Below are positions 6,501 through 20,424 of a DNA stretch of 24,000 nt, in pieces. Numbering within the stretch: the first letter of the stretch is position 1; each line of letters starts with the position of its first letter. Source of the stretch: Eubacterium sp. AF22-8LB (lineage in GTDB: Bacteria; Bacillota_I; Bacilli_A; Erysipelotrichales; Erysipelotrichaceae). Under the pieces are notes generated by a model, which made no database searches, was not told the DNA's origin, and was given only the letters and a program-made list of their open reading frames with translations. Position numbers and translations under genes: made by a program. The stretch covers positions 57,997 through 81,996 of the forward strand of contig NZ_QRVI01000001.1 in NCBI RefSeq assembly GCF_003458715.1. The letters are read 5' to 3'.

Positions 6501-6530
6501 AACAAGAAAAAGGCAATCCAAAGATTGCCT
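6501..6530 (-). terminator. Rho-independent terminator closing the Mo/Se operon
   Basis: Minus-strand RNA reads AGGCAAUC-UUUG-GAUUGCCU followed by UUUUCUUGUU. The 8-bp stem starts at the VanY stop codon. Confidence 0.7.
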
Positions 6531-7317
6531 AAGCTCCATAATATTCATCTAAAGTTAAGTTGTTCTTATATAAATATGTAGCTAGATCCACACCAACATA
6601 TCTTAAATGCCAGCTTTCAGGAGCTATTTTAGTCTTATCTTCCTTATCATCCGGATAACGTAAAATAAATCCATATTTATGCATATTTTTTAATAACCAA
6701 CCATAATGTGAATTATATCGAACAGCATCTAAATCACTACAATCATTATCCATACGAATATCTACAGACAAACCGGATTGGTGCTCACTATATCCTGGTC
6801 TTGTCCAATAACGATCTGCATACTCTTCACCATAGCTTGCAGCTCCATTATTAAACAAATCCGTTTGGTAAGCGTAAGAACGATATGCCGAACAAGCATT
6901 CAAAATAAATCCTTCTTTTTCGGCTGCATCAATCAATTTATTAAATGCCTTTGCGGCAGGCTTACGCATACGCACATTCGCATTTTCTCCACTCGAAGGC
7001 ACTTCAACCAAATCCTTTGGCTCATAATCTTCTGGCAATCCTGAATATTTATTTACAAGAATATAAATAGAATCCAAATCTGAAACCGTGATAGTATTCT
7101 CATAAGGCTCTTTGCTCTGATCGACCTTTGTCACTTTTGGCAAATTCGTTTCCGTATCTTCTTTTTTAGAAACCACTTCCTGTGTTTGTTGCGGCTGACT
7201 CACCTTATTATCATTCGTTCTTTTCATAATCAATGCCAATAATAACGCAATAATCATAATCAATACGATTATCACAAACACAAGAAATTTTCTTACTCTT
7301 CTTCTTTTCTTTTTCAA
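6529..7317 (-). CDS. VanY-type D-alanyl-D-alanine carboxypeptidase (peptidase M15B), membrane-anchored
   Basis: KKKRRR followed by a TM helix, then the M15B motifs SEHQSGLSVD and WHLRYVG. I moved the start to the TTG at 7317 (SD AGAGGTG 6 nt upstream), which removes the 38-nt overlap implied by the ORF-track ATG at 7368. Confidence 0.85.
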   Translation of the reverse strand: MKKKRRRVRKFLVFVIIVLIMIIALLLALIMKRTNDNKVSQPQQTQEVVSKKEDTETNLPKVTKVDQSKEPYENTITVSDLDSIYILVNKYSGLPEDYEPKDLVEVPSSGENANVRMRKPAAKAFNKLIDAAEKEGFILNACSAYRSYAYQTDLFNNGAASYGEEYADRYWTRPGYSEHQSGLSVDIRMDNDCSDLDAVRYNSHYGWLLKNMHKYGFILRYPDDKEDKTKIAPESWHLRYVGVDLATYLYKNNLTLDEYYGA

Positions 7318-7330
7318 ATCAAACACCTCT

Positions 7331-8698
7331 TTAAACTGGAATAAACAACACTTTATTATAGCCCCCACAAATCATGCCCAATGACGCACCCTTAGAATTG
7401 GATAAATTATAGTCTTTGATCATGACTTTTTTACATGCCCTCGCATCTAATATAGCTTCATATTCCACTTTTCCTCCACCTATTGTGTCAATAATTCCAT
7501 CTTTATACACGAGCATCATACTTCCAACACCTCTTGGTGCCGAGCCTTTTTTCTCAATAATAATGCATAATGTTCCGTGAACATTGGATTCCAACAATTC
7601 TTTAGAAACACTCGAGCTAAACTTCGCATTCTTGATTTCAATCAATTGAGCCAAAATACTAATCGATATTTCAGCTGGCGTCTGTGCCCTGATATCTAAA
7701 CCAATAGGTGCATGTACTTGGGATATTTTTTCTTTTGAATAGCCTTCTTCAATCAAAGCATCAAAAGTTTTTTTCACTTTCCCTTTACTGCCAATCATCC
7801 CTAAATATAAATGAGGTCGCCAAAGAACCTTTTCTAAACATAGACGATCATCCTTATGACCTCGAGTTACAATCACATAACATGTATTGTCTTCATTTGG
7901 CAATATTGAATCCATTTGATTATATTCCATACAATGAATTTCATTTGCGGTTGGAAAACACTCCTTATTCGCAAACTCTATGCGATTATCAATTACGATT
8001 GTATACAGTTCTAGAATACTGGCCATCTTGGCTAAATACTGACTTACATGCCCACACCCCAAAATCACCAGCTTAGGTTGTGTTTTAAACCAATCTTCAC
8101 AAATGCAATCCACATCTATATCTTCTTCTAACAATGTTTTTAGACAACGCGTATATAGATTCGAATCCCCATTCACATGAATTTTAACAGGTTTATCTAG
8201 CTTCTTTAAATACACACGAATCAAATCCTGCATAATTTTAGGTGTAACCAATTCATTCGGATCAATATCCATTAACGTATATCGATGTATCACATTCTTT
8301 ACAGGATTACCCAATCCTTTCAGATTGGAAATCAATACAATTTCATCCGAATCTAAATCAATGACAGGTTCCTTTTCATTCGGATATTTTAAAGGTAAAT
8401 GTTTAGAACCATCCGCTTCTATCAAAATCACATCCACCATTTTTTTAAGTTGATTCAACAAGTTCAAATCTAAGGCACAAATTTTTTTATCATCACACAA
8501 ATTTCCCGCATGACAATACCCATACTTTTCAATTTGATGCATTATTTCATCCAAACTAGGATTGACTAAAGTATCCTCTTCTATCAACATATGTGTCGTT
8601 GTACACATTAATACTGTTTTTCCCTGTGATACATATTTATCTTTTAATTCATGGATATATGTTGTTTTTCCACCTGAACCAATAACACTAATAATCAT
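7331..8698 (-). CDS. Fusion protein: YqeC-family selenium cofactor biosynthesis P-loop protein (N-terminal about 210 aa) joined to an XdhC-family Moco-insertion chaperone module
   Basis: YqeC motifs: ISVIGSGGKTT, CTTTHM, ILIEADGSKHLPLKYPNEKEPVI. XdhC Rossmann part: LVILGCGHVSQYLAKMA...GMIGSKGKV...HAPIGLDIRAQTPAEISISILAQLIE. XdhC_CoxI-like part at the extreme C-terminus: KKGSAPRGVGSMMLVYKDGIIDTIGGGKVE...MICGG. Start set at the ATG at 8698 (SD GGGAGA 6 nt upstream) rather than the GTG at 8719. Confidence 0.8.
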   Translation of the reverse strand: MIISVIGSGGKTTYIHELKDKYVSQGKTVLMCTTTHMLIEEDTLVNPSLDEIMHQIEKYGYCHAGNLCDDKKICALDLNLLNQLKKMVDVILIEADGSKHLPLKYPNEKEPVIDLDSDEIVLISNLKGLGNPVKNVIHRYTLMDIDPNELVTPKIMQDLIRVYLKKLDKPVKIHVNGDSNLYTRCLKTLLEEDIDVDCICEDWFKTQPKLVILGCGHVSQYLAKMASILELYTIVIDNRIEFANKECFPTANEIHCMEYNQMDSILPNEDNTCYVIVTRGHKDDRLCLEKVLWRPHLYLGMIGSKGKVKKTFDALIEEGYSKEKISQVHAPIGLDIRAQTPAEISISILAQLIEIKNAKFSSSVSKELLESNVHGTLCIIIEKKGSAPRGVGSMMLVYKDGIIDTIGGGKVEYEAILDARACKKVMIKDYNLSNSKGASLGMICGGYNKVLFIPV

Positions 8699-9779
8699 TT
8701 GAAATCTCCCGAATCGCACAAATTGCTAAATCTATATCTTCAATTGAATTTTGAAAAGATAATGATAAGCGAACTATTCCCTTTTCTTCTGTTTTTAAAT
8801 GTTTATGCATAAGTGGTGCACAATGCGCACCACAACGCGTTATAATACCATACTTATAATTCAGTACATCACTCACATAAGCACTATCTTTATGTGGAAT
8901 ATTGAATGCCACAATCGAAGTAGAATTTTGTAAAGACGAATAAAATTCTACATATCCTTCTAAACCTGAATATAGTCTTTCTAATAAAAAACGTTCCTTT
9001 TCAATAATCTCTTTTTGATGCGAAGCAACATATTGAACACCTGCATTTAAAGCCGCAATTCCAACTAAATTCTGTGTTCCCGCCTCTAAATGCTCTGGAT
9101 ATGCATGGGGCATTTCTTGACTAAAAGAATCTATACCCGTTCCACCAGAAATCAAAGGTTTTACTTCAATGTCTTTTACACAAAAACCACCAATACCACC
9201 GATACCTAAAAGGCCTTTGTGTCCACTAAAACATAAGATATCTATGTTTTCTATAGACACAGGAATATGTCCTGCACTCTGTGCTGCATCTACCATCAAT
9301 AACACACCATGTTCTTTACAATAGTGTCCAATTTCTTGCACATCAAAAATTTCTCCAGTCACATTTGAACTGTGAGTCATAACAACCATTCGTGTATTTA
9401 GCTGAAATTGATTTTTAATATCCTCTAGATAAGGCGAACAAATTGTTAGTGAAATGAACCCCTTCTTTTCTAACTCATATAAAGGGCGAAGAACACTATT
9501 ATGCTCTGCATACGTCGTGATCACATGATCCTTTTCTTTTAAGATTCCTTTGATGCATGTATTTAAGCTTTCCGTATTTCCACTATTCAATATCACACGA
9601 TGAAAATCTGGTATTTGAAAAAAATTAGCCACGTTTTTTCGTGTTTGAAAAATCAAACGCGAAGCATCCATATTCGCACTGCGATTGGCATTTCCAGCTA
9701 CCTCCATAGCTTCTATGACAGCTTGCTTCACAGTATCAATTTTAGGAAAACTCGTTGCTGCCTGATCAAGATAAACCAT
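8688..9779 (-). CDS. Class V aminotransferase: NifS-like cysteine desulfurase / selenocysteine lyase (short EF2568-type subfamily)
   Basis: YLDQAATSFP N-terminus, PLP lysine in FSGHKGLLG and active-site Cys in RCGAHCAP. The 363-aa length with a short N-terminus fits the clade linked to the E. faecalis SelD/YqeB/YqeC cluster. Confidence 0.8.
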   Translation of the reverse strand: MVYLDQAATSFPKIDTVKQAVIEAMEVAGNANRSANMDASRLIFQTRKNVANFFQIPDFHRVILNSGNTESLNTCIKGILKEKDHVITTYAEHNSVLRPLYELEKKGFISLTICSPYLEDIKNQFQLNTRMVVMTHSSNVTGEIFDVQEIGHYCKEHGVLLMVDAAQSAGHIPVSIENIDILCFSGHKGLLGIGGIGGFCVKDIEVKPLISGGTGIDSFSQEMPHAYPEHLEAGTQNLVGIAALNAGVQYVASHQKEIIEKERFLLERLYSGLEGYVEFYSSLQNSTSIVAFNIPHKDSAYVSDVLNYKYGIITRCGAHCAPLMHKHLKTEEKGIVRLSLSFQNSIEDIDLAICAIREISNDY

Positions 9780-10557
9780 GCAATATAGCCTCCAAGACGC
9801 CTCCTGCTATGCAGCGTGCTTTATCTGAAATCGTAAAACAATTCTGATATTCACCGATTCTTGGATCAATATCTGCCATTTTAAAGCCTGTCGTTACATA
9901 ATATCCATCTTGAATCAAGCCCCGAAGTAGCCCTGACATGCTCGCATAAACAGGTGTCTTGTCTACATACGCAATAATTTCATTCTTTTCCACAATATCT
10001 GTAATCTTTTTTACATTGTGACAAGCACCCTCACAAGGCGAATGAATCACTCTTTCTTTAGAATATCCCTTAATATTTCCAGGTACACCCGTATTTGGCA
10101 ATGCGCAACCATCGTAAATCAATCTTCCTAAATTATGTCCACGCATTGTTTCCACAACAACATGTACATCTTTGCCCGCACAAAAACCTGGGCCAAGACC
10201 AATTGTAATAGGCGCCATATCCATTGTTGTTCCTAAATTCTTTTTAGCTAGAATCGCATCCACTAAGGCCACATGTTCTATTTTCAAAATCATTTCTCCA
10301 TTTGGATCCACCATCATTGCCACTTGATTCTTTGACATGACTTCTTTTGCTTCTTCAATTGTAGAAACTAAAATACACGTCATATCTTCAACAGAAAATT
10401 CACCTTCATATACAGCTTGGCAAAAAGCAACATTTCTTCGTATCGCGCTTGGCTTTTCGACTTCTAACACCAAGACTTGAAATCCACTCTTCACAAGCTT
10501 ATAGATTGTTCCTGTCGCAATGTCTCCTCCACCACGCACAATTACACATTTATCCAT
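9766..10557 (-). CDS. yqeB: Selenium-dependent molybdenum hydroxylase system protein, YqeB (EF2563) family
   Basis: 263 aa. N-terminus VIVRGGGDIATGTIYKLVKSGFQVLVLEVEKPSAIRRNVAFCQAVYEG is characteristic of this family as I recall it. Confidence 0.75.
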   Translation of the reverse strand: MDKCVIVRGGGDIATGTIYKLVKSGFQVLVLEVEKPSAIRRNVAFCQAVYEGEFSVEDMTCILVSTIEEAKEVMSKNQVAMMVDPNGEMILKIEHVALVDAILAKKNLGTTMDMAPITIGLGPGFCAGKDVHVVVETMRGHNLGRLIYDGCALPNTGVPGNIKGYSKERVIHSPCEGACHNVKKITDIVEKNEIIAYVDKTPVYASMSGLLRGLIQDGYYVTTGFKMADIDPRIGEYQNCFTISDKARCIAGGVLEAILHGLS

Positions 10558-10562
10558 AATCC

Positions 10563-11156
10563 TTACGGCTTGATAATTTTATCAGCCTTCTCCATTCTCT
10601 CTACAATATCATACATATTTGTGACAGATCCTACTTGTAACTCTTCTTTTAAGTGGAAGAAATCCAAACAAGTTCCGCAACTTACAATTTCAACTCCATT
10701 TGATTCCAAATATTTCAAATCCTCTAAAGTCTCATTCTTTGTTGTTGTGATTTTTACACCCTCATTATAAAAAATCATTTCATCTGGTAAAGCATCCTGC
10801 TTTGTCAAAGAAAAGATGAATGATTTCATTAATAAAGTGCCTAATTCCGGGTTTGATCCCATCACATTGCTTGCGCAAACCACTACCATTTTAGGTTTAG
10901 CACAACTACAATCTGCATATGTGTATTCCACTTCAAAATCAGCCTCTTCATCACCCTTTGAAATTTCAACAATATAATCCTTGCCCTCTTGTTTTGAACT
11001 TACCGAATAGTTCTTCACCTTCGCAAATTTAGTTAAGTTTTCAACCGCAATTTCATTATCTACAATTGTTGAAACTACATTCTCCTCTTTCAAAGCATCC
11101 TTGGTTTTTACGACTGGAAGTGGACACTCCAATCCTCTACAATCTAAAGTTTTCAT
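10563..11156 (-). CDS. yedF: YedF-type selenium metabolism protein (TusA/SirA-like N-domain fused to a DsrE-like C-domain)
   Basis: 197 aa. CPxP sulfur-carrier motif in LDCRGLECPLPVVKTK. The C-terminal domain has GSNPELGTLLMKSF...FYNEGVKI...SCGTCLDFF...NMYDIVE. Confidence 0.8.
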   Translation of the reverse strand: MKTLDCRGLECPLPVVKTKDALKEENVVSTIVDNEIAVENLTKFAKVKNYSVSSKQEGKDYIVEISKGDEEADFEVEYTYADCSCAKPKMVVVCASNVMGSNPELGTLLMKSFIFSLTKQDALPDEMIFYNEGVKITTTKNETLEDLKYLESNGVEIVSCGTCLDFFHLKEELQVGSVTNMYDIVERMEKADKIIKP

Positions 11157-11160
11157 CTCT

Positions 11161-12177
11161 CTACCTCACATATACATTATATTCATTTTTATCAATAACT
11201 TCACCCACAACATATAGCTCGAGATTGTTTTCTATAAAATTCTTTTTTATATCCATCAAATCTTCTTTAGATACACTTGCCAACAATCCACCACTGGTTT
11301 GTGGATCAAATAAAATCTCTTCCGTAAAGAAATCACAATCAAAATAAATCTTACCCTCTACGCTGTTTCGATTCGTCTGTGCAGCCCCACTCAAATAGAA
11401 CTCTTCCACATATCTTTTACAATCATCAAAACAAGGAATCGAATCCTTGTAAATTATGGCACTGTTCTTGTCATCTAACATTTCATTTAAATGTACTAAT
11501 AGTCCAAAACCAGTCACATCCGTTAAAGCATGCACATCATACTTTTTTAAAGCATCACACGCATACTTATTTAGCGTAGTCATGCTTTTAAAGACACGCT
11601 GCTGCATACTTTCTGAACAATCGTCCATGCGCAAAGCATTTAAAGTTAATCCTACTCCAAGTGGCTTTGTCAAAATTAAGACGTCTCCACTTTCAGTCCC
11701 ATTATTTTTCTTTACGTCTTTCGGATTTACTAATCCTGTTACACTCAAGCCATATTTAATTGAATCATCACGAATAGAGTGGCCTCCTGCCAACGCACAC
11801 CCAGCTTCAACCAGCTTAGAATTTCCTCCCTCAATGATTTTACCTAAAATATTCAAATCCTCATTATCCGGAAAACACACAATATTTAAAGCTGTTTTAG
11901 GCGTACCATTCATCGCATAAATATCGCTCAATGCATTCGTTGCCGCAATCTGGCCATATAGATATGGATCTTCTACCATAGGTGGAAAGAAATCCAACGT
12001 GGATACAAAGGCATGACTTTCATCAATTTGATACACAGCTGCATCATCCCTAGAATCAAAGCCAACCAACACATTATCATTTTTATAAGAATCAATTTTT
12101 TCTAAAATGTGGCTTAATTTTTTAGCCCCTAATTTAGCACTACATCCACCACTCTTACAATATATTTTCTCATTCAT
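11161..12177 (-). CDS. selD: Selenide, water dikinase (selenophosphate synthetase), Cys-type
   Basis: N-terminal glycine-rich loop SGGCSAKLG, with the catalytic position encoded by TGT (Cys, not a TGA Sec codon). AIR-synthase-like fold motifs: DDAAVY, LDFFPPMVEDPY, ALSDIYAMNG, GGHSIRD, TDVTGFGL. 338 aa. Confidence 0.9.
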   Translation of the reverse strand: MNEKIYCKSGGCSAKLGAKKLSHILEKIDSYKNDNVLVGFDSRDDAAVYQIDESHAFVSTLDFFPPMVEDPYLYGQIAATNALSDIYAMNGTPKTALNIVCFPDNEDLNILGKIIEGGNSKLVEAGCALAGGHSIRDDSIKYGLSVTGLVNPKDVKKNNGTESGDVLILTKPLGVGLTLNALRMDDCSESMQQRVFKSMTTLNKYACDALKKYDVHALTDVTGFGLLVHLNEMLDDKNSAIIYKDSIPCFDDCKRYVEEFYLSGAAQTNRNSVEGKIYFDCDFFTEEILFDPQTSGGLLASVSKEDLMDIKKNFIENNLELYVVGEVIDKNEYNVYVR

Positions 12178-12398
12178 TAAAAATTCACCCTAACTATATC
12201 CTCATATGAAATGTTATTTTCCTCTAAAAAAACTCTCCACTTTTCAATATTTAGATCCTTAGACATAAAACACATACCACATCCAGCTTTAACACAGCTT
12301 GGAACAGGAATCATACGTCCATTCTTTGTGATGCTTTCTAGTTCTAATACATCTTGAATACTCTTAAAAGTAATAATCAACACTTTTTCTTTATTCAT
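12177..12398 (-). CDS. DUF3343 (putative Se/S carrier-like) small protein
   Basis: 73-75 aa. Pattern VLIITFKSIQDVLELESIT...RMIPVPSCVKAGCGMCF. Its stop overlaps the selD ATG by 1 nt (TAATG). I prefer the ATG at 12398; the TTG at 12404 is also possible. Confidence 0.65.
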   Translation of the reverse strand: MNKEKVLIITFKSIQDVLELESITKNGRMIPVPSCVKAGCGMCFMSKDLNIEKWRVFLEENNISYEDIVRVNF

Positions 12399-12723
12399 TT
12401 TCAAATATTTCCTTAAACACTTCGTCCGTATACATATCCACTTTTTCTTTGAATACTTTATATTTATGAACCAATATTTTCCCTTCCGGTGTTAAAAAAG
12501 AACCACCACCATGATTTCCTCCACTTATCGTATGAACTAGCTCATAGCCTAAATCCTCTTCAGCTCTTTTAATGATTTTCCAAGCCTTTGAATTTGACAT
12601 TCCCATTTCTTTATAGGCCCTCGATAAAGAGCCATATTGATCGCATAAGTCTAAGAGTTCGACAACGCCTTTGCCAAAATCCATTTCTTGGTTGCCAATT
12701 TGAATCTTTAATTTATATCTCAT
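12391..12723 (-). CDS. ModE N-terminal-domain-like winged-HTH protein (no Mop/TOBE molybdate-binding domains)
   Basis: GKGVVELLDLCDQYGSLSRAYKEMGMSNSKAWKIIKRAEEDLGYELVHTISGGNHGGGSFLTPEGK matches the ModE/LysR-type N-terminal domain. Start set to the ATG at 12723, which overlaps the upstream stop as ATGA. Confidence 0.65.
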   Translation of the reverse strand: MRYKLKIQIGNQEMDFGKGVVELLDLCDQYGSLSRAYKEMGMSNSKAWKIIKRAEEDLGYELVHTISGGNHGGGSFLTPEGKILVHKYKVFKEKVDMYTDEVFKEIFENE

Positions 12724-13733
12724 TTTCCAAAACCACAATTTGGATATGTGCAAGCCTTACATCCTAAGCACAATCCACCTTCTCCTAAATCACATAACTC
12801 TTCATAGGTAACTACATCTTTTGCGAGTAAACGAGGAAGTATTAAATCAAACACCGTTCTTTTGGCATACATGACACAGCCTGGAAGCCCCACAATTGGT
12901 ACTTCGCCTTTATAGGAAAGTAAAAACATAGCTCCAGGAAGAACAGGCGATCCATAACTAATTATATTGGCTCCGGTATTCTTGATTGCAAGTGGCGTTT
13001 TGTCGTCTGGATCCACACTCATTCCACCTGTACAAAGTACAATATCTACACCTTGTTTTAATGCTTCATTAATTTTTTTGGTCACCATTTTATCATCATC
13101 ATCGCAAATTTCATGATAAACCATTTCACAACCAAACTCAGCTAATTTTTTCTGAATAACGGGTGTAAATGTATCTTTGATTCTTCCCTTATACACTTCA
13201 CTTCCTGTTGTGATCACAGCTGCTTTTTTTAATACAAAAGGCTTAATTTCTAGAATTGGAGAAACAACTAAAGAACGGACTTTCTCCATTTTTTCCTTTT
13301 CAATCACCAAAGGAATAATACGCATACCTGCCAATTTATCTCCAGGATGAACCACCATATTTCCATGTCGAGTCGCAATCATCATTTGTCCAAATGAATT
13401 CACAGTAAACAAAGATTTACGATCCACTTTAAACAAACCATGGATGTCACTTTTTAATTCAATCTTACCCTCTTTGATTTCACCATACGACATATATTCA
13501 TTTTTACACATGTCTAGCAAAACCATAGCTGCATCATTTTCATGCATCATACTCTCGTCATTTTCCCAAACATATAAATTTTCTTTCCCCACCGATAACA
13601 ATAAAGGAATATCTTCTTCTGTCACGATATGACCCTTACGAAAAAGGGCATCTTTTGTGACACCCTTTATAATCTGCGTTATATCATGACAAAGTACATG
13701 CCCTACGGCATCCTCAGTTTTGATTAATTTCAT
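12720..13733 (-). CDS. MoeA-like molybdopterin-binding protein (atypical short form with a Cys-rich C-terminal tail)
   Basis: Central MoCF_biosynth domain: AAVITTGSEVYKGRIKDTF...DIVLCTGGMSVDPDD. The N-terminus is only loosely MoeA_N-like and there is no MoeA_C domain. The tail is CDLGEGGLCLGCKACTYPNCGFGK. Confidence 0.65.
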   Translation of the reverse strand: MKLIKTEDAVGHVLCHDITQIIKGVTKDALFRKGHIVTEEDIPLLLSVGKENLYVWENDESMMHENDAAMVLLDMCKNEYMSYGEIKEGKIELKSDIHGLFKVDRKSLFTVNSFGQMMIATRHGNMVVHPGDKLAGMRIIPLVIEKEKMEKVRSLVVSPILEIKPFVLKKAAVITTGSEVYKGRIKDTFTPVIQKKLAEFGCEMVYHEICDDDDKMVTKKINEALKQGVDIVLCTGGMSVDPDDKTPLAIKNTGANIISYGSPVLPGAMFLLSYKGEVPIVGLPGCVMYAKRTVFDLILPRLLAKDVVTYEELCDLGEGGLCLGCKACTYPNCGFGK

Positions 13734-13734
13734 A

Positions 13735-14511
13735 TTACTCTCCTTTTTTGAATCCGTATTTCTTAAATACTTTTAATGCTTTATCGCTCTTTAAGAATTT
13801 AATTAATGAATCCGCTTCATCTTTGTGCTTTGTACTAGAAACACGACCTACTGGATATAGGACTGGTGTAGCTAATAATGAATTATCGCACTCTGCCACT
13901 ACTTCTACTTTATCACTACTTGCCGCATCTGTCGCGTAAACCAAACCAACTTCTGCATTTCCTGCTTCAACCTGAGACAATACTTCAGTTACATTTCCAG
14001 CTAAACTTAGACGATCTTGAAGCAAATCCCATACACCTAAATTTGTCAAAGCCTCTTTTGCGTAGCTTCCTGCTGGCACAACCTCTGGATCTCCAATCGC
14101 AATCATAGAAGCAGCACTAATATTGTCAAATCCAGTTACTGTTGTATTGCTGCCTTTTCCTTTGATCAATACTAATTTATTTTCTAATACATTTGAAATA
14201 GAATCCGCATCTACTAAATTTTCATCTTTTAAAGCGTTCATCTGTGTTGTAGCTGCACTAAAGAAAACATCTGCATCTAAACCTTTTTCAATTTGAAGCT
14301 GTAGCTTTCCACTACTATCATACACACCTTCGATTGTCACATTTGAATACTCCTTTTCAAACATAGGAATCAATTCATCTTCAAATGCATTCTCTAAACT
14401 TGCCGCAGCTGCAATTGTTAGTTTTACTTCTTCTTTCGGTTTATTTGAACTACACCCAAATAAACTTGTGGCCATCACTCCAGCCAATAAAATACTTAAA
14501 CCTTTTCTCAT
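13735..14511 (-). CDS. modA: Molybdate ABC transporter substrate-binding lipoprotein
   Basis: Signal peptide with lipobox LFGCSS. ModA-type motifs: TIAAAASL, VYDSSGKL, DVFFSAA, IGDPEVVPAGSYAKEAL, VLYPV. Confidence 0.85.
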   Translation of the reverse strand: MRKGLSILLAGVMATSLFGCSSNKPKEEVKLTIAAAASLENAFEDELIPMFEKEYSNVTIEGVYDSSGKLQLQIEKGLDADVFFSAATTQMNALKDENLVDADSISNVLENKLVLIKGKGSNTTVTGFDNISAASMIAIGDPEVVPAGSYAKEALTNLGVWDLLQDRLSLAGNVTEVLSQVEAGNAEVGLVYATDAASSDKVEVVAECDNSLLATPVLYPVGRVSSTKHKDEADSLIKFLKSDKALKVFKKYGFKKGE

Positions 14512-15140
14512 GTAATTTCTCCGTCTTTAATCTTATATTTTAGATCACACAAATAATTCACTTCTTCCTTATTGTGTGATACAAAAATAACGGGTTTTGA
14601 GATTCGAAGCTCGCTTTTAAGCTCCTTTAATAAATCTTCCTTTAAATCTTCATCCAAAGCACTAAACGGCTCATCGAGCAATAATACATCGGGCTCATAC
14701 GCCATCAAACGAGCTAATGCCACTCTTTGTCTTTGTCCACCTGACAATTGTTTAGGATATCTTGGAGCAAGTTCACTAATTCTAAATTGTTTCATCACTC
14801 TTTTAACAACAAAATCCACATCGTTCACTTTTCTAGCTTTTAATCCCATACTAATATTTTCATATACATTCATATTAGGAAATAAAGCATAGCTTTGAAA
14901 CATATACCCCACGTTGCGTTTTTGAATGGGAATATTGATTTTCTTTTCGGAATCAAATAAAACACGATTATTCAAAGTAATTCGCCCTTTATCTGGTGTT
15001 TCAATACCTGCAATACATTTTAATGTCATACTTTTACCTGAGCCTGAAGCCCCCATAAGGCCTAATATATTGTCTTCTACTTGAAATGAAATATCTAAAT
15101 CAAACTCTGCAAGCTTTTTGTATATTTGTACTTCTAACAT
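14508..15140 (-). CDS. modC: Molybdate ABC transporter ATP-binding protein, minimal NBD (210 aa, no C-terminal TOBE domain)
   Basis: Walker A GASGSGKS, Q-loop, signature LSGGQRQR, Walker B LLLDEP and H-loop VSHN. The protein ends about 20 aa after the H-loop. Confidence 0.8.
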   Translation of the reverse strand: MLEVQIYKKLAEFDLDISFQVEDNILGLMGASGSGKSMTLKCIAGIETPDKGRITLNNRVLFDSEKKINIPIQKRNVGYMFQSYALFPNMNVYENISMGLKARKVNDVDFVVKRVMKQFRISELAPRYPKQLSGGQRQRVALARLMAYEPDVLLLDEPFSALDEDLKEDLLKELKSELRISKPVIFVSHNKEEVNYLCDLKYKIKDGEIT

Positions 15141-15830
15141 TTAGAAACTCCTTTTCTTCCGAACATACAATTGATATAGATTCAACAAGATTACAGCTGT
15201 AAAACAAATACCAATAATTACCCACACATAAAAGGCAGCAGAATCCATATCTCCACTCATCACTTCACTATAAACAGCAACCGGAAGTGTCCTTGTCTTT
15301 CCTATAATGTTTCCCGCAAGCATTGCCGTTGCCCCAAACTCACCTAGACCACGCGCAAAAGCAAGTACTCCACCACTAATAATTCCCGGCAAGGCATTGG
15401 GAATTAACACCTTTAAAAAGATGCTCCATTCACTCATTCCTAGAGTTCTTGCGACATAGACCAAATCCATATCCACCTGTTCAAAAGCCCCCCTGGCATT
15501 GCGGTACATAAGTGGAAAAGATATCACAACAGCTGCAATCACGGTAGCGCTAAAGCTAAATGCGATACGAACACCAAATGCATTCATAAAGAACTTGCCT
15601 ACGGGTTGATTCACGCCAAAGATCATCAACAAGAAAAAGCCAGCTACTGTTGGTGGTAAAACCATAGGCAAAGTAAAGAGTCCATCAAATATCATTTTCA
15701 ATGCTTCACTTTTTCGTGAATAGATCCACCATGCAGCTAGCAAACCAAGAATAAACGTAATCACAATTGTGATACTTGCCGTTTTTAGAGATATCCAGAT
15801 AGGGGTTAAATCCAAGTTATTTCCTTGCAC
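15141..15830 (-). CDS. modB: Molybdate ABC transporter permease
   Basis: 229 aa with about 5 TM helices. EAA-loop region ARTLGMSEWSIFLKVLIPNALPGIISG. It sits next to modC and modA. Confidence 0.85.
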   Translation of the reverse strand: MQGNNLDLTPIWISLKTASITIVITFILGLLAAWWIYSRKSEALKMIFDGLFTLPMVLPPTVAGFFLLMIFGVNQPVGKFFMNAFGVRIAFSFSATVIAAVVISFPLMYRNARGAFEQVDMDLVYVARTLGMSEWSIFLKVLIPNALPGIISGGVLAFARGLGEFGATAMLAGNIIGKTRTLPVAVYSEVMSGDMDSAAFYVWVIIGICFTAVILLNLYQLYVRKKRSF

Positions 15831-16752
15831 ACTCTCTCGCTTCCCCTTTCATGATTTCTAAACCATGTTTTAATGGGCCTAAAATAATATCTAAGCTTTC
15901 CTTTACTGCCTTAGGACTTCCTGGTAAATTGATAATCAACGTTTGATTTCTTAATACACTTACACCACGTGACAACATAGCCTTGTTGGTATATTTCATC
16001 GATTCATAACGTAATGCCTCACTAATACCCGGAACATTGCGTGTCATAACTTTCATTGTGGCTTCCGGCGTCACATCACGAATACTTAACCCAGTTCCTC
16101 CGGTTGTAAGAATCAAATCATTTTGGCAACGATCACTTAAATTGATCAATTGCGAAATAATTTCATTTTCATCATCCGCAATTACCGTTACACTCGTCAC
16201 ATTGTATCCATGTTCTGTCATGATTTTTTTAATCAATGGACCACTCTCATCTTTTCTTTGTCCTACACTAGCCTTATCACTTAGTGTTAATACGGCTACG
16301 CGCATTCTAGAATCCTTATTTTCAATGACTTCAACTTTATTTCCAACACAAATATGTCCACCATGTATTACACGAGTAAACACCCCTAAATGAGGCATAA
16401 TACACTGTCCTACTTGATGATAAATAGCGCAATGTGAATGACAGCTTTTTCCAATTTGAGTAAGTTCTAGTAATACGTCTCCAATCTTAAATTGTGTTCC
16501 TACAGGATAATCTGTGAATTCAATACCTGATACAAGTAAATTTTCACCAAAGGCTCCATCCTCTACATTGGCTCCTTTGGCCTTAAATTCTTCACGCTTT
16601 TCATATGATAATAAAGAAACCTGGCGATGCCACTTGCCTGCATGTGCATCATTTTCTAATCCATGATCTTCAATAATTTTAATATCTTGAACTGGATGTT
16701 TTTCCGTTCCTTTTTGTTTGCTGATACAAATAGCTTTAATTATTCCTTCCAT
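15817..16752 (-). CDS. Fusion: MOSC domain (N-terminal about 145 aa) joined to a MogA/MoaB molybdopterin adenylyltransferase-type domain
   Basis: MOSC part: [19 protein letters not shown]...[11 protein letters not shown]...[10 protein letters not shown]...[10 protein letters not shown]. MogA/MoaB part: [11 protein letters not shown]...[21 protein letters not shown]...INLPGSPKA. Confidence 0.8.
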
Positions 16753-17216
16753 ACAAAATCCCCACTCTTTCCACCTGATTTAGAAACCAAATGTATATTC
16801 TTGATTTCCATATCTTTACTTATAGCTTTACACATGTCATAAATTGTCAGAAGACAAACATTCACACCTGTCAAGGCTTCCATTTCTACACCTGTTTTTC
16901 CATTACACTTAACTGTACAATAGGCGTAGATCAAACAATTCTCTTTATCGATTTCAAAATCAATATTTACTTTATTGATCATTAAAGGATGACACAAAGG
17001 AATCAAATCACTCGTCTTTTTTACACCCATGATTCCAGCTATTCGAGCTACACCTAGTACATCCCCTTTTTTCATATCGCTATGTTCGATTTTCTCAATA
17101 ATCTCTTTATTCACTAATATACTTCCAACAGCACAGGCGCTTCTTGAAGTGATATCCTTTTCACTTACATCCACCATACGTGCGTTTCCTTGTTTATCAA
17201 AATGCGTTAATTCCAT
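16740..17216 (-). CDS. moaC: Cyclic pyranopterin monophosphate synthase accessory protein MoaC
   Basis: [23 protein letters not shown] and GVEMEALTG motifs. I moved the start to the ATG at 17216 (SD GGAGG 5 nt upstream, 1 nt after the moaA stop) instead of 17234. Confidence 0.9.
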
Positions 17217-17217
17217 T

Positions 17218-18162
17218 TCATCCTCCAATTTCATTCATCACCGTCGATGAATTTTCCTTCTCAAAATGATGTTCCTTAGGCTTCTTGAATATCCACTCTC
17301 TCATCACTTTTTCTAATTCTGATAAATTATCTAAATATGGCTTTAAATCCACACCATCCATATGGAATAAACATAATTTCAATCGTCCTACACTACTTAA
17401 GCGTATACGATTACAGTCTTGACAAAACTTATTATGTAACGCTTCAATAAAACCAATATAGCCTTGATAATCTGTTATTTTATAATAGTGTGCCGGCCCA
17501 TTTCCAAGCTTTTTATCGTACACATTTAATGTATAATTCTTTTGTACATATTCAATCAATTCATCCATTTTTGTGTTTCGATCACTATTCTTTAATGGCA
17601 TCAGTTCAATAAATCGCAGCGCAATCTTTTTATCTTTGATGAGTTCCAACATAGATTCAAAGCGTGAAAATGAAAATAGATTATCCACAACACAATTCAC
17701 TTTAACCGCAATTCCAATCTTATAAGCATATTCCAAATTCAAAAGAATTTTCTTCAAATTATTTATCTTACATATCTTTAAATATTCAGATTCATCTAAT
17801 GTATCAATTGAAAAATTTATACAATCAATACCAATCTTTTTGAGTTCATCTAAATCAGAAAACGAAAATAAACTTCCATTGGTCGTTAGTGTTACTTGTT
17901 CAACACCATCTAATTCTTTCAATCTACGAATAAATCCAATATATCCTTTACGAAGTGTGGGTTCTCCACCCGTAATTTTAAATCGCGTGATTCCTAATAA
18001 AACGGCACATCTACAAATATCTAAAAGTTGTTCATACGTTAATATATCCGAATGACAAAGATGTTTTGCGATATCTGGCTTGCAGTAGTAACAAGCATAG
18101 TTACATCGGTCTGTTAATGAAATTCGCATATAATTTATGTTTCGTCCAAATGAATCTTGCAT
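17218..18162 (-). CDS. moaA: GTP 3',8-cyclase MoaA (radical SAM)
   Basis: [19 protein letters not shown] radical-SAM cluster motif, a C-terminal CxxCxRxRL second cluster ([12 protein letters not shown]) and a terminal GG. SD GGGAAGGA. Confidence 0.9.
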
Positions 18163-18174
18163 AATATCCTTCCC

Positions 18175-18196
18175 GTTATTCTCATGCGAGAATAAC
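18175..18196. promoter_or_regulatory. Perfect inverted repeat GTTATTCTC-N4-GAGAATAAC between the candidate promoter and the moaA SD (operator or 5'-UTR hairpin)
   Basis: The 9-bp perfect arms were read directly. The repeat ends immediately next to the SD, 13-34 nt upstream of the moaA ATG. Confidence 0.45.
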
Positions 18197-18207
18197 CAAC
18201 TGATTCA

Positions 18208-18236
18208 ATTTTATCATTGAATCTACATTTTATCTA
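18208..18236 (-). promoter_or_regulatory. Candidate promoter of the Mo/Se operon (extended -10 TGATAAAAT, weak -35 TAGATA, 17-nt spacer)
   Basis: Minus strand reads ...TAGATAaaatgtagattcaaTGaTAAAATtgaatc... This is the only sigma-A-like -10 upstream of moaA in the 89-nt intergenic region. Confidence 0.35.
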
Positions 18237-18251: not shown

Positions 18252-18791
18252 ATGAAACGATGTACGTGGTGTAATCTAAACAATCCAAAATATATTGAAT
18301 ATCATGATAACGAATGGGGAAAACTGAATACAGATGAAAAATATCTATTTGAAATGTTGATACTTGAATCTTTTCAGGCAGGACTAAGCTGGCAATGTAT
18401 TCTAAATAAAAGAGAAGCTTTTAAAGAGGCTTATGAAGACTTTGACATTGATAAAGTGATTGAATTTGATGAAGAAAAAGTAGAACAATTAAGAAACAAT
18501 CCTAATATCATTCGTAACAAATTAAAGATCAAAGCGAGTATTTCAAATGCGAAGATTTTTAAATCCATTCAAGAAGAGTATCAAACTTTTTATAATTATT
18601 TATGTACTTTTACACATGGGAAGATTAATTATGAAACAGGAAAAACCACATCGACTCTTTCGGATTCCATATCAAATGATTTAAAAAAAAGAGGCATGAA
18701 GTTTGTAGGAAGCACCATTATATACTCCTATCTTCAAGCCATTGGTGTTATTTATTCTCACGAAAAAGATTGTTTCTTATACAAAGACTAA
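18252..18791 (+). CDS. tag: DNA-3-methyladenine glycosylase I
   Basis: Full-length similarity to E. coli Tag recalled from memory: RC.W....P.YI.YHDNEWG, FEML.LE.FQAGLSW, KFVG.TI.YS.LQA.G...H...C. Confidence 0.9.
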   Translation: MKRCTWCNLNNPKYIEYHDNEWGKLNTDEKYLFEMLILESFQAGLSWQCILNKREAFKEAYEDFDIDKVIEFDEEKVEQLRNNPNIIRNKLKIKASISNAKIFKSIQEEYQTFYNYLCTFTHGKINYETGKTTSTLSDSISNDLKKRGMKFVGSTIIYSYLQAIGVIYSHEKDCFLYKD

Positions 18792-19120
18792 TCCCATGTT
18801 TTCCATACATTTGGTTCATAACCTACTGTCGCCAATTTGCCGTTACGCACGATTGGCGTTTTTAGTATGTGCTGGTTAAGATACACCTTTTCCTCTTTAT
18901 TCGATAAATAATTCAACATCGTCAATAATTCTTTATCCTTCGCCTTTGGATCAATCATAGAATCAATTCCTACTTGTCTTAATACACTCTCAAATTCTTT
19001 CTTACTCATTTCTTTTTCATCTAAATTGATAAACTGAAACTTAATATTTCTTTCTTTAAAATAGCGTTGTGCTTTCTTTGTATCAAAGCACTTGTTCTTC
19101 CCAAAAATCTGTATATTCAT
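18788..19120 (-). CDS. ArsC/Spx/YffB-family thioredoxin-fold protein
   Basis: 110 aa. N-terminus IQIFGKNKCFDTKKAQRYFKERNIKFQFINL is typical of the ArsC family. Its start overlaps the upstream amidohydrolase stop as ATGA. Confidence 0.7.
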   Translation of the reverse strand: MNIQIFGKNKCFDTKKAQRYFKERNIKFQFINLDEKEMSKKEFESVLRQVGIDSMIDPKAKDKELLTMLNYLSNKEEKVYLNQHILKTPIVRNGKLATVGYEPNVWKTWD

Positions 19121-20382
19121 CGCATTAACCTCTCTACCCTTTTTTGTACTTCATCATATAGTGTCTCAATCTCAAATCCTACATGAAAATGTCCATCTTC
19201 ATATAGAATCTTTCCATTGACCATCGTATATTTTACATTGGATTTAGATCCGCTGTATACAATATTTTTTGCGACATTATTCATTGGCTGCATATTCGGT
19301 TGATGTAAATCTAAAACAATTAAATCTGCCAACTTTCCAGCTTCTAATACCCCACAATTTAAATTTAAAGCCTTGGCTGCATTGACTGTAGCCATTTTTA
19401 GTACTTCATATGCATCGACTGCAGAAGCATCCTTCTCTTTATATTTTGCCAATCCCGTCACTAAAAACATTTCTCTAAACATATCTAGACAATTATTACT
19501 TGCCGCACCATCCGTTCCTAGACATATGTTAATCTTTCGTTGAAGCATCGATTGGATTGGGGCTATACCACTGGCAAGCTTTAAATTGGATGCAGGATTC
19601 GTGATAACATTTAAGTGTTTTTCTTCAAATAACGCTAAATCGTGTTCACTCATATGCACACAATGAAAGGCTCCACCGCCATAGTCATATACACCTAGAT
19701 CACATAAGTATTCAACAGGACTGCGTCCCGTCTTTTCTTTGCATGTATTAACTTCATATTCTGTTTCACTTAAATGTGTATAAACAGGTGCTTTATATTT
19801 ATGAGATAATGCAGCTACTTGTTGAATTTTTTCTTTAGAATTAGTATATTCATGACTAAAACCTAGTATATAAGAAATCAAACTATTTTCTTGATTGTAT
19901 TCATTGAAGCAACGCTCTACATCTTCTACAGATAGACAAAAGTCATTGACCGCACCACACAAAACTGTTCTATAATTCATATCAAGGCTTGCGTGTAAAA
20001 TAGCTTCTGGATTAATATACATATCAAAATTGGAAGTGATGCCGCTGGTTAAATATTCTAATATAGCTAATTTTGAGAAATAATAAATATCTTCTTCTGA
20101 AAGCTTTGCCTCAATCGGAAATACTTTTTCATTCAGCCACTGCTGTAAAGGCATATCATCGGCCATGGATCTTAAAAATGTCATTCCAGAATGGGTATGC
20201 GCATTGATAAAGCCAGGCATAATTAGATTCTGGCGTACATCTATTTCTCGGTCAAAACAAAAAGTAGAAGCTTTCACTTTTCCTACATATATAATCTTAT
20301 TATCTTCTATCCAGACTTCTCCTGAAAAAATATCAAAATCCTTCATCGTGAGGATTCGTGCATTATAGAATCGAATACGCAT
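19117..20382 (-). CDS. Amidohydrolase, MtaD-like (5'-methylthioadenosine / S-adenosylhomocysteine deaminase / chlorohydrolase family)
   Basis: PGFINAHTHSGMTFLRSMADDMPLQQWLNEKVFPIE, HLSET, LGTDGAASNN and LDL motifs. Start set to the second ATG at 20382 because its spacing to SD GAAGGG is better than for the ATG at 20388. Confidence 0.7.
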   Translation of the reverse strand: MRIRFYNARILTMKDFDIFSGEVWIEDNKIIYVGKVKASTFCFDREIDVRQNLIMPGFINAHTHSGMTFLRSMADDMPLQQWLNEKVFPIEAKLSEEDIYYFSKLAILEYLTSGITSNFDMYINPEAILHASLDMNYRTVLCGAVNDFCLSVEDVERCFNEYNQENSLISYILGFSHEYTNSKEKIQQVAALSHKYKAPVYTHLSETEYEVNTCKEKTGRSPVEYLCDLGVYDYGGGAFHCVHMSEHDLALFEEKHLNVITNPASNLKLASGIAPIQSMLQRKINICLGTDGAASNNCLDMFREMFLVTGLAKYKEKDASAVDAYEVLKMATVNAAKALNLNCGVLEAGKLADLIVLDLHQPNMQPMNNVAKNIVYSGSKSNVKYTMVNGKILYEDGHFHVGFEIETLYDEVQKRVERLMR

Positions 20383-20424
20383 ATGCATCCCTTCTTTCTA
20401 ATCTAATCATCCCACAAATAGAAT

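Follow-up and report, generated by a model that had tools for sequence, protein, structure and literature searches.

How does the labile selenium ligand get onto molybdenum in the purine and nicotinate hydroxylases of clostridia, and which proteins provide the selenium-specific steps? A 24,000-nucleotide stretch of contig NZ_QRVI01000001.1 from Eubacterium sp. AF22-8LB (Holdemanella biformis, Erysipelotrichaceae; assembly GCF_003458715.1, positions 57,997 to 81,996), which we call the window, bears on this question. It carries an operon that amounts to a compact and complete parts list: molybdate uptake, molybdenum cofactor (Moco) synthesis, selenium activation, carriers and an XdhC chaperone. 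One of the genes encodes a MOSC domain joined to a MogA/MoaB domain (MOSC–MogA). A prior interpretation made from the letters of the window (the sequence-only reading) proposed that this protein and a NifS-like enzyme of the same operon form a split version of the eukaryotic Moco sulfurase ABA3, a “Moco selenurase” in which the MOSC domain holds Moco while the NifS-like enzyme and SelD-activated selenium install a terminal Mo=Se (or Mo=S) ligand. Our analysis supports that interpretation in part. The parts are as described, and we favor, with moderate confidence, a different role for the fusion: MOSC–MogA would be a bifunctional protein of the general, anaerobe-type Moco pathway that is not specific to selenium, with the selenium genes forming a separate module joined to it.

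Domains and fold of the MOSC–MogA protein

WP_117992367.1, named either “molybdopterin adenylyltransferase” or “MOSC domain-containing protein” by its sources, has the same sequence as the fusion protein. Pfam, NCBIfam, alignment and fold agree with the sequence-only reading that the third gene of the operon fuses a MOSC domain, with its cysteine in GKSCHSHC, to MogA/MoaB (Table 1). The C-terminal half is a MogA/MoaB-type domain, of the family that adenylates molybdopterin ahead of metal insertion. It scores 118 bits against TIGR00177 (cut-off 85) and 145.5 bits against the equivalog model NF006932, just below the cut-off of 158, and shows the LTTGGTGLS and NLPGSP motifs of the MogA/MoaB family, which are invariant in our alignments of the fusions. 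The N-terminal half is a minimal MOSC β-barrel that keeps C104, the FGEN and TQ motifs, and additional invariant cysteine (C108, C117) and histidine residues. C104 aligns with C119/C120 of YiiM, the invariant cysteine position of MOSC domains. Among the fusions, C108, C117, H37, H42, H105 and the motifs GAFGEN and TQIGK do not vary; their conservation in 150 diverse family representatives is at least 90%.

An AF2 model of residues 1-147 has a pLDDT of 90, with the Cys/His loop as its least confident stretch. Foldseek ranks YuaD first among the relatives of this model (1ORU; TM 0.79), followed by YiiM and then the MOSC domain of mARC1. We found no MOSC_N domain in the fusion, in which Pfam detects MOSC and MoCF_biosynth only, and the MOSC barrel of the model begins at residue 2. 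Because the exact protein falls in a cluster of 1712 sequences and full-length fusions are encoded in at least 80 species-level genomes, a frameshift artefact is ruled out.

The MOSC half belongs with the small MOSC proteins of Moco operons: it is a barrel of ~145 amino acids that bears the signature DAH..HRQ..GxFGEN..QIGKxCHxxC..GxCxMP, and its neighbors are moaA, moaC and mogA. The same minimal barrel is seen in B. subtilis YuaD (1ORU), Geobacter “MosC”, E. faecalis EF1394 and the MoaC/MOSC fusions of NCBIfam NF011069, a model that aligns to residues 4-145 with 163 bits; Geobacter MosC and EF1394 also share its place beside moaA, moaC and mogA. Unlike these proteins, the domain is here fused C-terminally to MogA, and YuaD has a longer β3-β4 insertion and is 17% identical. 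E. coli YiiM and YcbX and human mARC share the fold, the invariant cysteine, and counterparts of the FGEN asparagine and of a glutamine modeled to contact Moco in YiiM. In contrast to them, the fusion lacks a 3-alpha or MOSC_N module and a redox partner domain, and has two extra invariant cysteines and several invariant histidines.

Genomic neighborhoods of the fusion and of the selenium genes

We compared the window with genome loci (L001-L095) extending 10 kb on both sides of an anchor gene. For the fusion, neighbors were counted in the best 80 of at least 592 relatives in a species-level genome collection, and all 80 loci encode the full-length fusion. A protein search gave more than 8000 database relatives, with both Pfam domains annotated in 119 of the 120 matches listed. 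The 80 loci come mostly from Lachnospiraceae, Oscillospiraceae and other Clostridia; metagenome-assembled genomes labeled Treponema, Sphaerochaeta, Anaerolineae, Symbiobacterium and, in a few cases, Alistipes, Bacteroidales or Eggerthellaceae are also among them. In four loci (L005, L006, L020 at 7490-7936, and L078), a second, divergent MOSC-like open reading frame (ORF) of ~149 amino acids, with the motifs EGDFHGKG..DRQITLVS and SRKRCYPELC, lies beside the fusion.

The neighbors are overwhelmingly those of Moco synthesis: moaA in 71 of 80 loci, moaC in 57, modA, modB and modC in 48-53, a MoeA-like gene in 47 and an XdhC-like gene in 19. Selenium genes are sparse, with yqeB in 9 loci, yqeC in 7, selD and a NifS-like gene in 6 each, and yedF in 1; at least one gene of the selenium module is present in 12/80. 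This agrees with a caveat of the sequence-only reading, that small MOSC proteins occur in moa operons lacking selenium links. By clustering of neighboring ORFs and Pfam checks, the molybdoenzymes encoded near the fusion include the formate dehydrogenase (FDH) alpha subunit in 8 loci, xanthine-oxidase-family hydroxylases in 5 and aldehyde:ferredoxin oxidoreductase (AOR) in 4, with FdhD in 7 loci. None of the FDH, FdhD or AOR loci contains a selenium gene within 10 kb on either side of the fusion. A Blautia locus is minimal, with moaA, MOSC-mogA and moaC alone amid housekeeping genes.

We examined the selenium module itself in loci centered on YqeB homologues. The window's combined molybdenum and selenium operon, or one nearly the same, is found in Coprobacillus (L089), in L093 and in Anaerotignum lactatifermentans (L087). 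L092 encodes the fused MOSC–MogA together with yqeB and yqeC-xdhC beside two hydroxylases. Three further loci (L091, L094 and L095) encode xanthine dehydrogenase (XDH) subunits with DUF3343, NifS-like, YedF, SelD, YqeB, YqeC-XdhC and MocA, and show no Moco or MOSC gene. Finally, L090 (GCA_965357635.1) is a molybdenum and selenium super-operon with MoaC, MoaA, a stand-alone 165-residue MogA, ModABC and a MoeA-like gene, and MOSC is absent from the whole 20.9-kb locus (10 kb on each side of yqeB). Across Erysipelotrichales and Lachnospirales, the kit for molybdenum uptake, Moco synthesis and selenium thus forms one cluster, in which gene order varies and MOSC/MogA and YqeC/XdhC are fused or separate. 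This conservation suggests either selection for co-expression or horizontal transfer of the entire kit.

At the level of loci, these data weaken the split-ABA3 proposal without formally refuting it. The fusion tracks moaA, moaC, modABC and the MoeA-like gene, not the selenium genes, and its presence in FDH and FdhD operons and in AOR operons that lack selenium genes argues against a selenium-specific role. The NifS-like enzyme stays with the selenium module in L091, L094 and L095, where no MOSC gene is nearby, and L090 combines MogA with a whole molybdenum and selenium set lacking MOSC. Profiling of the fusion against selD, yqeB and yqeC at the locus level thus gives a marker within 10 kb in only the 12 loci noted above, with four selenium loci that lack MOSC (L090, L091, L094 and L095). 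Support for the proposal comes from the operons of the window, Coprobacillus, L093 and Anaerotignum, in which all of the parts occur together, and from L032, where a NifS-like gene immediately follows the fusion. It comes as well from ABA3's C-terminal domain (ABA3-CT), which binds sulfurated Moco (PMC13653126), and from fusions of small MOSC domains to XdhC and FdhD, which connect them to Moco sulfuration chaperones. Against it stand also the published views that put the NifS-like enzyme upstream of SelD, and the FDH-only Moco clusters of Dehalogenimonas that contain MOSC: D. lykanthroporepellens, the one species of this genus tabulated in Table S1 of PMC5029168, is YqeB-/YqeC-. On balance we consider a MOSC–MogA/NifS-like selenurase very improbable. 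A sulfurase-like or carrier role, the broader part of the proposal, is plausible in view of the XdhC and FdhD fusions; the specific pairing with this NifS-like enzyme is the part that lacks support.

Comparison with ABA3/MOCOS (HMCS)/HxB leads to the same point. The likeness consists of a MOSC domain with the invariant cysteine, a NifS-like pyridoxal phosphate (PLP) enzyme in the same operon, and a cofactor for xanthine-oxidase-family enzymes. However, NifS-like and MOSC are here separate proteins, with nine genes between theirs and no co-variation across genomes; the fusion lacks MOSC_N and joins MOSC to MogA instead; and its context is not confined to xanthine-oxidase-family enzymes, as FDH or AOR are also neighbors. 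The accepted bacterial counterpart of ABA3 is XdhC with a cysteine desulfurase: a 2026 review has XDH sulfuration in bacteria requiring XdhC and the cysteine desulfurase NifS4, and mentions no bacterial MOSC protein (PMC13653126). Like the R. capsulatus XdhC and NifS4 system, the window encodes an XdhC-domain protein and a cysteine-desulfurase-like enzyme in overlapping genes (by 32 nt). Unlike that system, its XdhC shares a polypeptide with YqeC and has SelD, YedF, DUF3343 and YqeB as companions, which points to selenium instead of, or besides, sulfur. The adjacency of NifS-like and XdhC genes recurs in L089 and L093, and in L087 DUF3343 intervenes. Haft & Self (2008) described EF2568 as a probable selenocysteine lyase ahead of selenophosphate synthesis, and the SclA study proposed HSe- production by SclA as the opening step, after which SelD, YqeB and YqeC would serve as acceptors. 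Given the gene overlap and this XdhC/NifS4 and SclA literature, the better “split ABA3”, and by analogy the operon's closer counterpart of that enzyme, is the NifS-like protein paired with YqeC-XdhC, not MOSC–MogA.

The selenium module matches the described selenium-dependent molybdenum hydroxylase (SDMH) locus (Haft & Self, 2008; E. faecalis EF2563-EF2572; C. difficile) in its selD, yedF, yqeB, yqeC, EF2568-like NifS and XdhC genes. It differs in that Holdemanella, Coprobacillus and Anaerotignum join this module to a complete module for molybdenum uptake and Moco synthesis in one operon. A MOSC gene is unmentioned in Haft & Self (2008) and so lies outside the SDMH components described there. 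Nothing links MOSC–MogA to selenium beyond the concatenation of the two modules in a few lineages. The selenium-specific steps are thus to be sought in the NifS-like enzyme, SelD, YedF, DUF3343, YqeB and YqeC-XdhC rather than in MOSC–MogA, and the shared set of Holdemanella, Coprobacillus and Anaerotignum makes a good template for reconstitution.

A probable role of MOSC–MogA in the general Moco pathway, and the missing MoaE

To place the MOSC half among its relatives, we searched for it with phmmer library-wide, obtaining 2616 representatives (1293 at E<=1e-10), and tallied fusion partners in the best 150. These are mostly stand-alone proteins of ~145-160 amino acids. The partners among the fused ones are MogA (~26), XdhC (5, e.g. 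in proteins of 448-495 amino acids), MoaC (3-4, in both orders) and MobB (3), followed by ThiF/MoeB-like E1 enzymes (2) and by FdhD, MoaA and an N-terminal ModE-type (ModE-N) helix-turn-helix (HTH) domain (1 each). Partners apparently unrelated to Moco, such as CutC and 5-FTHF cyclo-ligase, occur singly. The recurrent partners thus include no redox domain, and all of them are proteins that make, sulfurate or insert Moco, which argues for a helper that handles cofactor or sulfur and against a YiiM-like enzyme. Anantharaman & Aravind are cited as having predicted a comparable role for MOSC domains in 2002.

Under the enzyme alternative, the MOSC half would catalyze a Moco-dependent reaction of its own, as YiiM, YcbX and mARC do (it might, for example, reduce N-hydroxylated bases), and MogA would be fused to it for cofactor supply only. 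YiiM and YuaD are indeed its nearest solved relatives by sequence and fold, and Peng et al count such proteins as molybdoenzymes (PMC6147048). Yet the MOSC half lacks the extra module, the YiiM 3-alpha bundle or MOSC_N, that completes the active site of known MOSC enzymes; its family is fused recurrently to Moco biosynthesis and insertion proteins and to no electron-transfer domain; and it is embedded in a biosynthetic operon. We give this alternative hardly any credence. Several residues modeled to contact Moco in YiiM have invariant counterparts in the fusion, namely the FGEN asparagine, a glutamine 3-4 residues before the cysteine, and the cysteine, which in YiiM is the reactive residue beside the modeled molybdenum (PMC5818509). 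Binding of a pterin-phosphate by the MOSC half is therefore a reasonable inference.

Where MOSC and mogA are unfused, they stand in the same order, MOSC then mogA, as in Anaerotignum lactatifermentans (L087) and a metagenome-assembled Actinobacteria genome (L088); in E. faecalis the MOSC gene EF1394 directly precedes EF1395, annotated “Molybdenum cofactor biosynthesis family protein” (PMC7701990). This conserved order points to a simple joining of neighboring Moco genes. Other genomes place small MOSC genes in the same setting: Geobacter “mosC” adjoins moaA (PMC2700814), a Dehalogenimonas MOSC gene lies within an 11-gene fdnGHI/Moco cluster that serves only FDH (PMC13390414), and the molybdoproteins of Dielma and of “many Clostridia” are one MOSC protein and AOR only (PMC6147048).

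In the general-pathway model that we favor, an ancestral small MOSC gene and the mogA gene that followed it would have been joined into one. The MOSC half may bind a pterin-phosphate ligand, Moco or molybdopterin (MPT), next to C104; placed between cofactor synthesis and the chaperones XdhC and FdhD, it would hold the cofactor, pass it on and probably handle sulfur. It would serve whichever molybdenum or tungsten enzyme the host has, be it formate dehydrogenase, AOR or a xanthine-oxidase-family hydroxylase. The Holdemanella operon has such a Moco module (moaA-moaC-MOSC/mogA-modBCA-moeA-like-modE) concatenated with a selenium module (DUF3343-selD-yedF-yqeB-NifS-like-yqeC/xdhC). Published studies of SclA, NifS/SelD and XdhC/NifS4 suggest the following route: the NifS-like enzyme would free selenium from selenocysteine for SelD. 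Selenophosphate or carrier-bound selenium would then be relayed by YedF, DUF3343, YqeB and YqeC to Moco held on the XdhC domain, which would insert the selenium-bearing cofactor into the hydroxylase. MOSC–MogA would provide cofactor and not selenium specificity.

Several points weigh against this model. In Table S1 of PMC5029168, many gut Firmicutes genera that bear the fusion (Faecalibacterium, Dorea) include SelD+/YqeB+/YqeC+ members at the genome level, so that co-occurrence with the selenium trait across genomes may exceed the local 15%; this also counts in favor of the selenurase proposal. One named fusion-bearing genome could be matched to that table: L. saburreum DSM 3986, the strain of fusion locus L041, is SelD+, YqeB+ and YqeC+. 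Two Blautia species, B. hansenii and B. hydrogenotrophica, are scored there as Se-negative. Ligand binding and sulfur chemistry of small MOSC domains are read by homology from YiiM, mARC and ABA3-CT, and our literature search for an experimentally characterized small MOSC protein of bacterial Moco operons gave remarks in genome papers only. There also seems little need for another sulfurase or carrier in genomes that have FdhD or XdhC anyway. Finally, the model leaves unexplained why moaD and moaE are systematically absent from the fusion operons.

This absence extends over all of the MOSC-containing loci. Neither tblastn with E. coli and L090 MoaE nor the Pfam lists reveal a MoaE in the window, in the 80 fusion loci or in 11 further MOSC-containing loci. 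A scan of the window gave no ORF of fewer than 200 amino acids ending in Gly-Gly, as a MoaD-like protein would; MoaD-like ORFs occur in just 3-4 fusion loci, and moeB is almost absent from the MOSC-containing Moco loci. Many of these loci encode all other steps (moaA, moaC, mogA, MoeA-like, mobA/B, fdhD and modABC). L090, the sole MOSC-less Moco locus that we recovered, has a MoaE-family gene at 17501-17911, between modC and the MoeA-like gene (PF02391, 28.8 bits vs a gathering score of 23.4). A literature search on missing MoaE in Clostridia again returned remarks in genome papers only.

These observations raise the alternative that the three-cysteine small MOSC protein, free or fused to MogA, MoaC or MoeB-like partners, inserts the dithiolene sulfur, replacing MoaE/MPT synthase or its persulfide donor. 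Such a role would account for the position of MOSC, wedged between MoaC and MogA, and fits the fusions of small MOSC to MoaC, MoaA and ThiF/MoeB-like E1 enzymes. It also fits the complementary pattern of ~91 MOSC-containing Moco loci with no MoaE and a MOSC-less molybdenum and selenium operon, L090, with MoaE, although this complementarity depends on a single MOSC-less locus, and moaD or moaE could lie elsewhere in the genomes, outside the 10 kb on each side. Published genomes point both ways: moaE is missing from G. metallireducens, which carries two mosC genes, a situation called “unexplained”, but G. sulfurreducens has both moaE and mosC (PMC2700814), and the Dehalogenimonas fdn/Moco cluster lists no moaD or moaE (PMC13390414). 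The MoaD-like ORFs in 3-4 fusion loci speak against a replacement, as does the ligand preference of all characterized MOSC proteins, which bind finished Moco and not cyclic pyranopterin monophosphate (cPMP); fusions to XdhC, FdhD and MobB likewise indicate late steps. We regard a dithiolene role as unlikely. Even so, the part worth following up is the absence of moaD and moaE from small-MOSC loci, which is more interesting than the fusion itself. The selenium module has been known since 2008, and fusions of this kind are widely annotated and biochemically uncharacterized. The small-MOSC family comprises more than 1000 representatives at 50%-identity clustering, located in Moco operons, and the consistent lack of moaD and moaE there may mean that the Moco pathway of the textbooks is incomplete for anaerobes.

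Layout of the operon and its other genes

The operon consists of 15 minus-strand genes, from moaA (starting at 18162) to a VanY-like gene (ending at 6529), each overlapping its neighbor or at most 5 nt apart. Their order is moaA, moaC, MOSC–MogA, modB, modC, modA, MoeA-like, ModE-N HTH, DUF3343, selD, yedF, yqeB, NifS-like, yqeC-xdhC and VanY-like. The NifS-like gene, number 13, thus lies ten genes downstream of the fusion, as the sequence-only reading had counted, and the companions it named (SelD, a TusA-like protein and DUF3343) are all present as selD, yedF (TusA+DsrE) and Se_S_carrier, together with YqeB and YqeC-XdhC. A single transcript for the 15 genes is plausible from their tight spacing, one promoter-like site 5' of moaA and a terminator after the last gene; the hairpin at 6530-6511, 3' of the VanY-like gene, is the sole convincing terminator.

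Table 1. Coordinates of the operon's genes, of the parts of the MOSC–MogA gene and of putative regulatory sites in the window.
Feature	Position	Strand	Support and remarks
Sigma-70-like promoter candidate, TAGATA-17-TAAAAT with TG extension	18208..18236	minus	consensus match only
Perfect 9-bp inverted repeat, GTTATTCTC-N4-GAGAATAAC	18175..18196	strandless	between promoter-like site and moaA start
moaA, GTP 3',8-cyclase	17218..18162	minus	TIGR02666 291 bits vs cut-off 284; Pfam Radical_SAM and Mob_synth_C
moaC, cPMP synthase	16740..17234	minus	Pfam MoaC E 2.2e-58; NF006870 238 bits
MOSC–MogA fusion	15817-16752	minus	311 aa; gene 3 of 15-gene operon
MOSC half, small beta-barrel, residues 1-147	16312..16752	minus	Pfam MOSC residues 36-141, E 1.5e-12, 48 bits vs cut-off 22.7
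Cys/His loop, G101-K-S-C104-H105-S-H-C108 ... G115-x-C117-I-M-P120	16393..16452	minus	C104 is the canonical MOSC Cys
MogA/MoaB half, residues 148-311	15817..16311	minus	Pfam MoCF_biosynth PF00994 residues 153-294, E 2.8e-33
modB, modC, modA, molybdate ABC transporter	13735..15830	minus	Pfam BPD_transp_1, ABC_tran, SBP_bac_11
Short MoeA-like protein, 337 aa, presumed Mo insertase	12720..13733	minus	central MoCF_biosynth domain is the sole Pfam domain
ModE N-terminal-type HTH regulator, 120 aa	12391..12753	minus	TIGR00637 E 3.1e-16 (below cut-off); Pfam HTH_1
DUF3343 / Se_S_carrier	12177..12404	minus	Pfam PF11823 E 5.3e-14
selD, selenophosphate synthetase	11161..12177	minus	TIGR00476 385 bits vs cut-off 125
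yedF, TusA+DsrE-like selenium metabolism protein	10563..11156	minus	TIGR03527 215 bits vs cut-off 110
yqeB, marker of selenium-dependent Moco biosynthesis	9766..10557	minus	TIGR03309 375 bits vs cut-off 220
NifS-like class V PLP enzyme	8688..9779	minus	Pfam Aminotran_5 E 4.3e-68; close to EF2568/SclA-like selenocysteine lyase/cysteine desulfurase family
YqeC + XdhC fusion, 462 aa, predicted Moco-binding maturation chaperone	7331..8719	minus	Pfam YqeC, XdhC_C, XdhC_CoxI; TIGR03172 130 bits vs cut-off 73
VanY-like D,D-carboxypeptidase	6529..7368, terminator-like hairpin 6530-6511	minus	N-terminal hydrophobic segment; overlaps yqeC-xdhC end by 38 nt

The selenium markers YqeB, YqeC and SelD all exceed their curated cut-offs. 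For the NifS-like protein, Pfam and motifs agree with the sequence-only reading of a class V enzyme with an RCGAHCAP loop: it has SGHK, with the PLP lysine, and a TRCGAHCAP active-site loop. It scores 359 bits against TIGR01977, the EF2568 family (cut-off 377), and 305 bits against NF040779, the SclA “exception” model (cut-off 525). Its 90%-identity cluster includes many 263-residue members besides the 363-residue form, one of them on 121 contigs, which suggests that the shorter form is a common truncated variant or reflects an alternative start call. Fusions of YqeC and XdhC, in proteins of ~462-467 amino acids, occur in the window, L089, L090 and L092-L095 (409 amino acids in L093), and the two are separate genes in Anaerotignum L087; the fusion ties a selenium-cofactor marker physically to the Moco insertion chaperone.

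Canonical MoeA is absent from the operon, which has the 337-residue MoeA-like protein instead. The gene is among the best conserved of the operon, at 53-66% identity in 47 of the 80 fusion loci vs 31-44% for MoaA, and the tail of the protein is cysteine-rich (GGLCLGCKACTYPNCGFGK). Its N-terminal 170 residues have no relative detected in PDB or Pfam. We considered a hidden MoaE domain there after BLAST with L090 MoaE matched the L093 homologue (E 9e-7) and the window protein (E 0.12), and rejected it, as profile-profile comparison with E. coli MoaE gave a probability of 0.3% and a PDB profile search found nothing.

The inverted repeat upstream of moaA has ends, CGTTAT and ATAACG, that look like half-sites of the E. 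coli ModE operator. This likeness makes the repeat probably an operator for the ModE-N-type regulator encoded in the operon. The palindrome (C)GTTATTCTC...GAGAATAAC(G) is also found just 5' of moaA in L089 (2336-2357) and L093 (3090-3113). No Rfam family, and hence no Moco riboswitch, was detected in the window.

A xanthine-oxidase-family hydroxylase is not present in the 24 kb of the window. In Coprobacillus L089, the operon runs on after yqeC-xdhC into a permease gene, three XDH subunit genes and a MocA-like gene, with no VanY-like gene there. On the 5' side of the operon in the window, past a divergent tag gene (18252-18791, plus strand), lie an ArsC/Spx/glutaredoxin-like gene (110 amino acids) and a TRZ/ATZ-type amidohydrolase gene (423 amino acids), both on the minus strand at 18788-20388. 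Sub-threshold matches of the amidohydrolase to SsnA (“selenium metabolism protein”) and to guanine/8-oxoguanine deaminases make it a possible purine-catabolic neighbor. An ArsC-like gene is also found near the XDH genes of L091.

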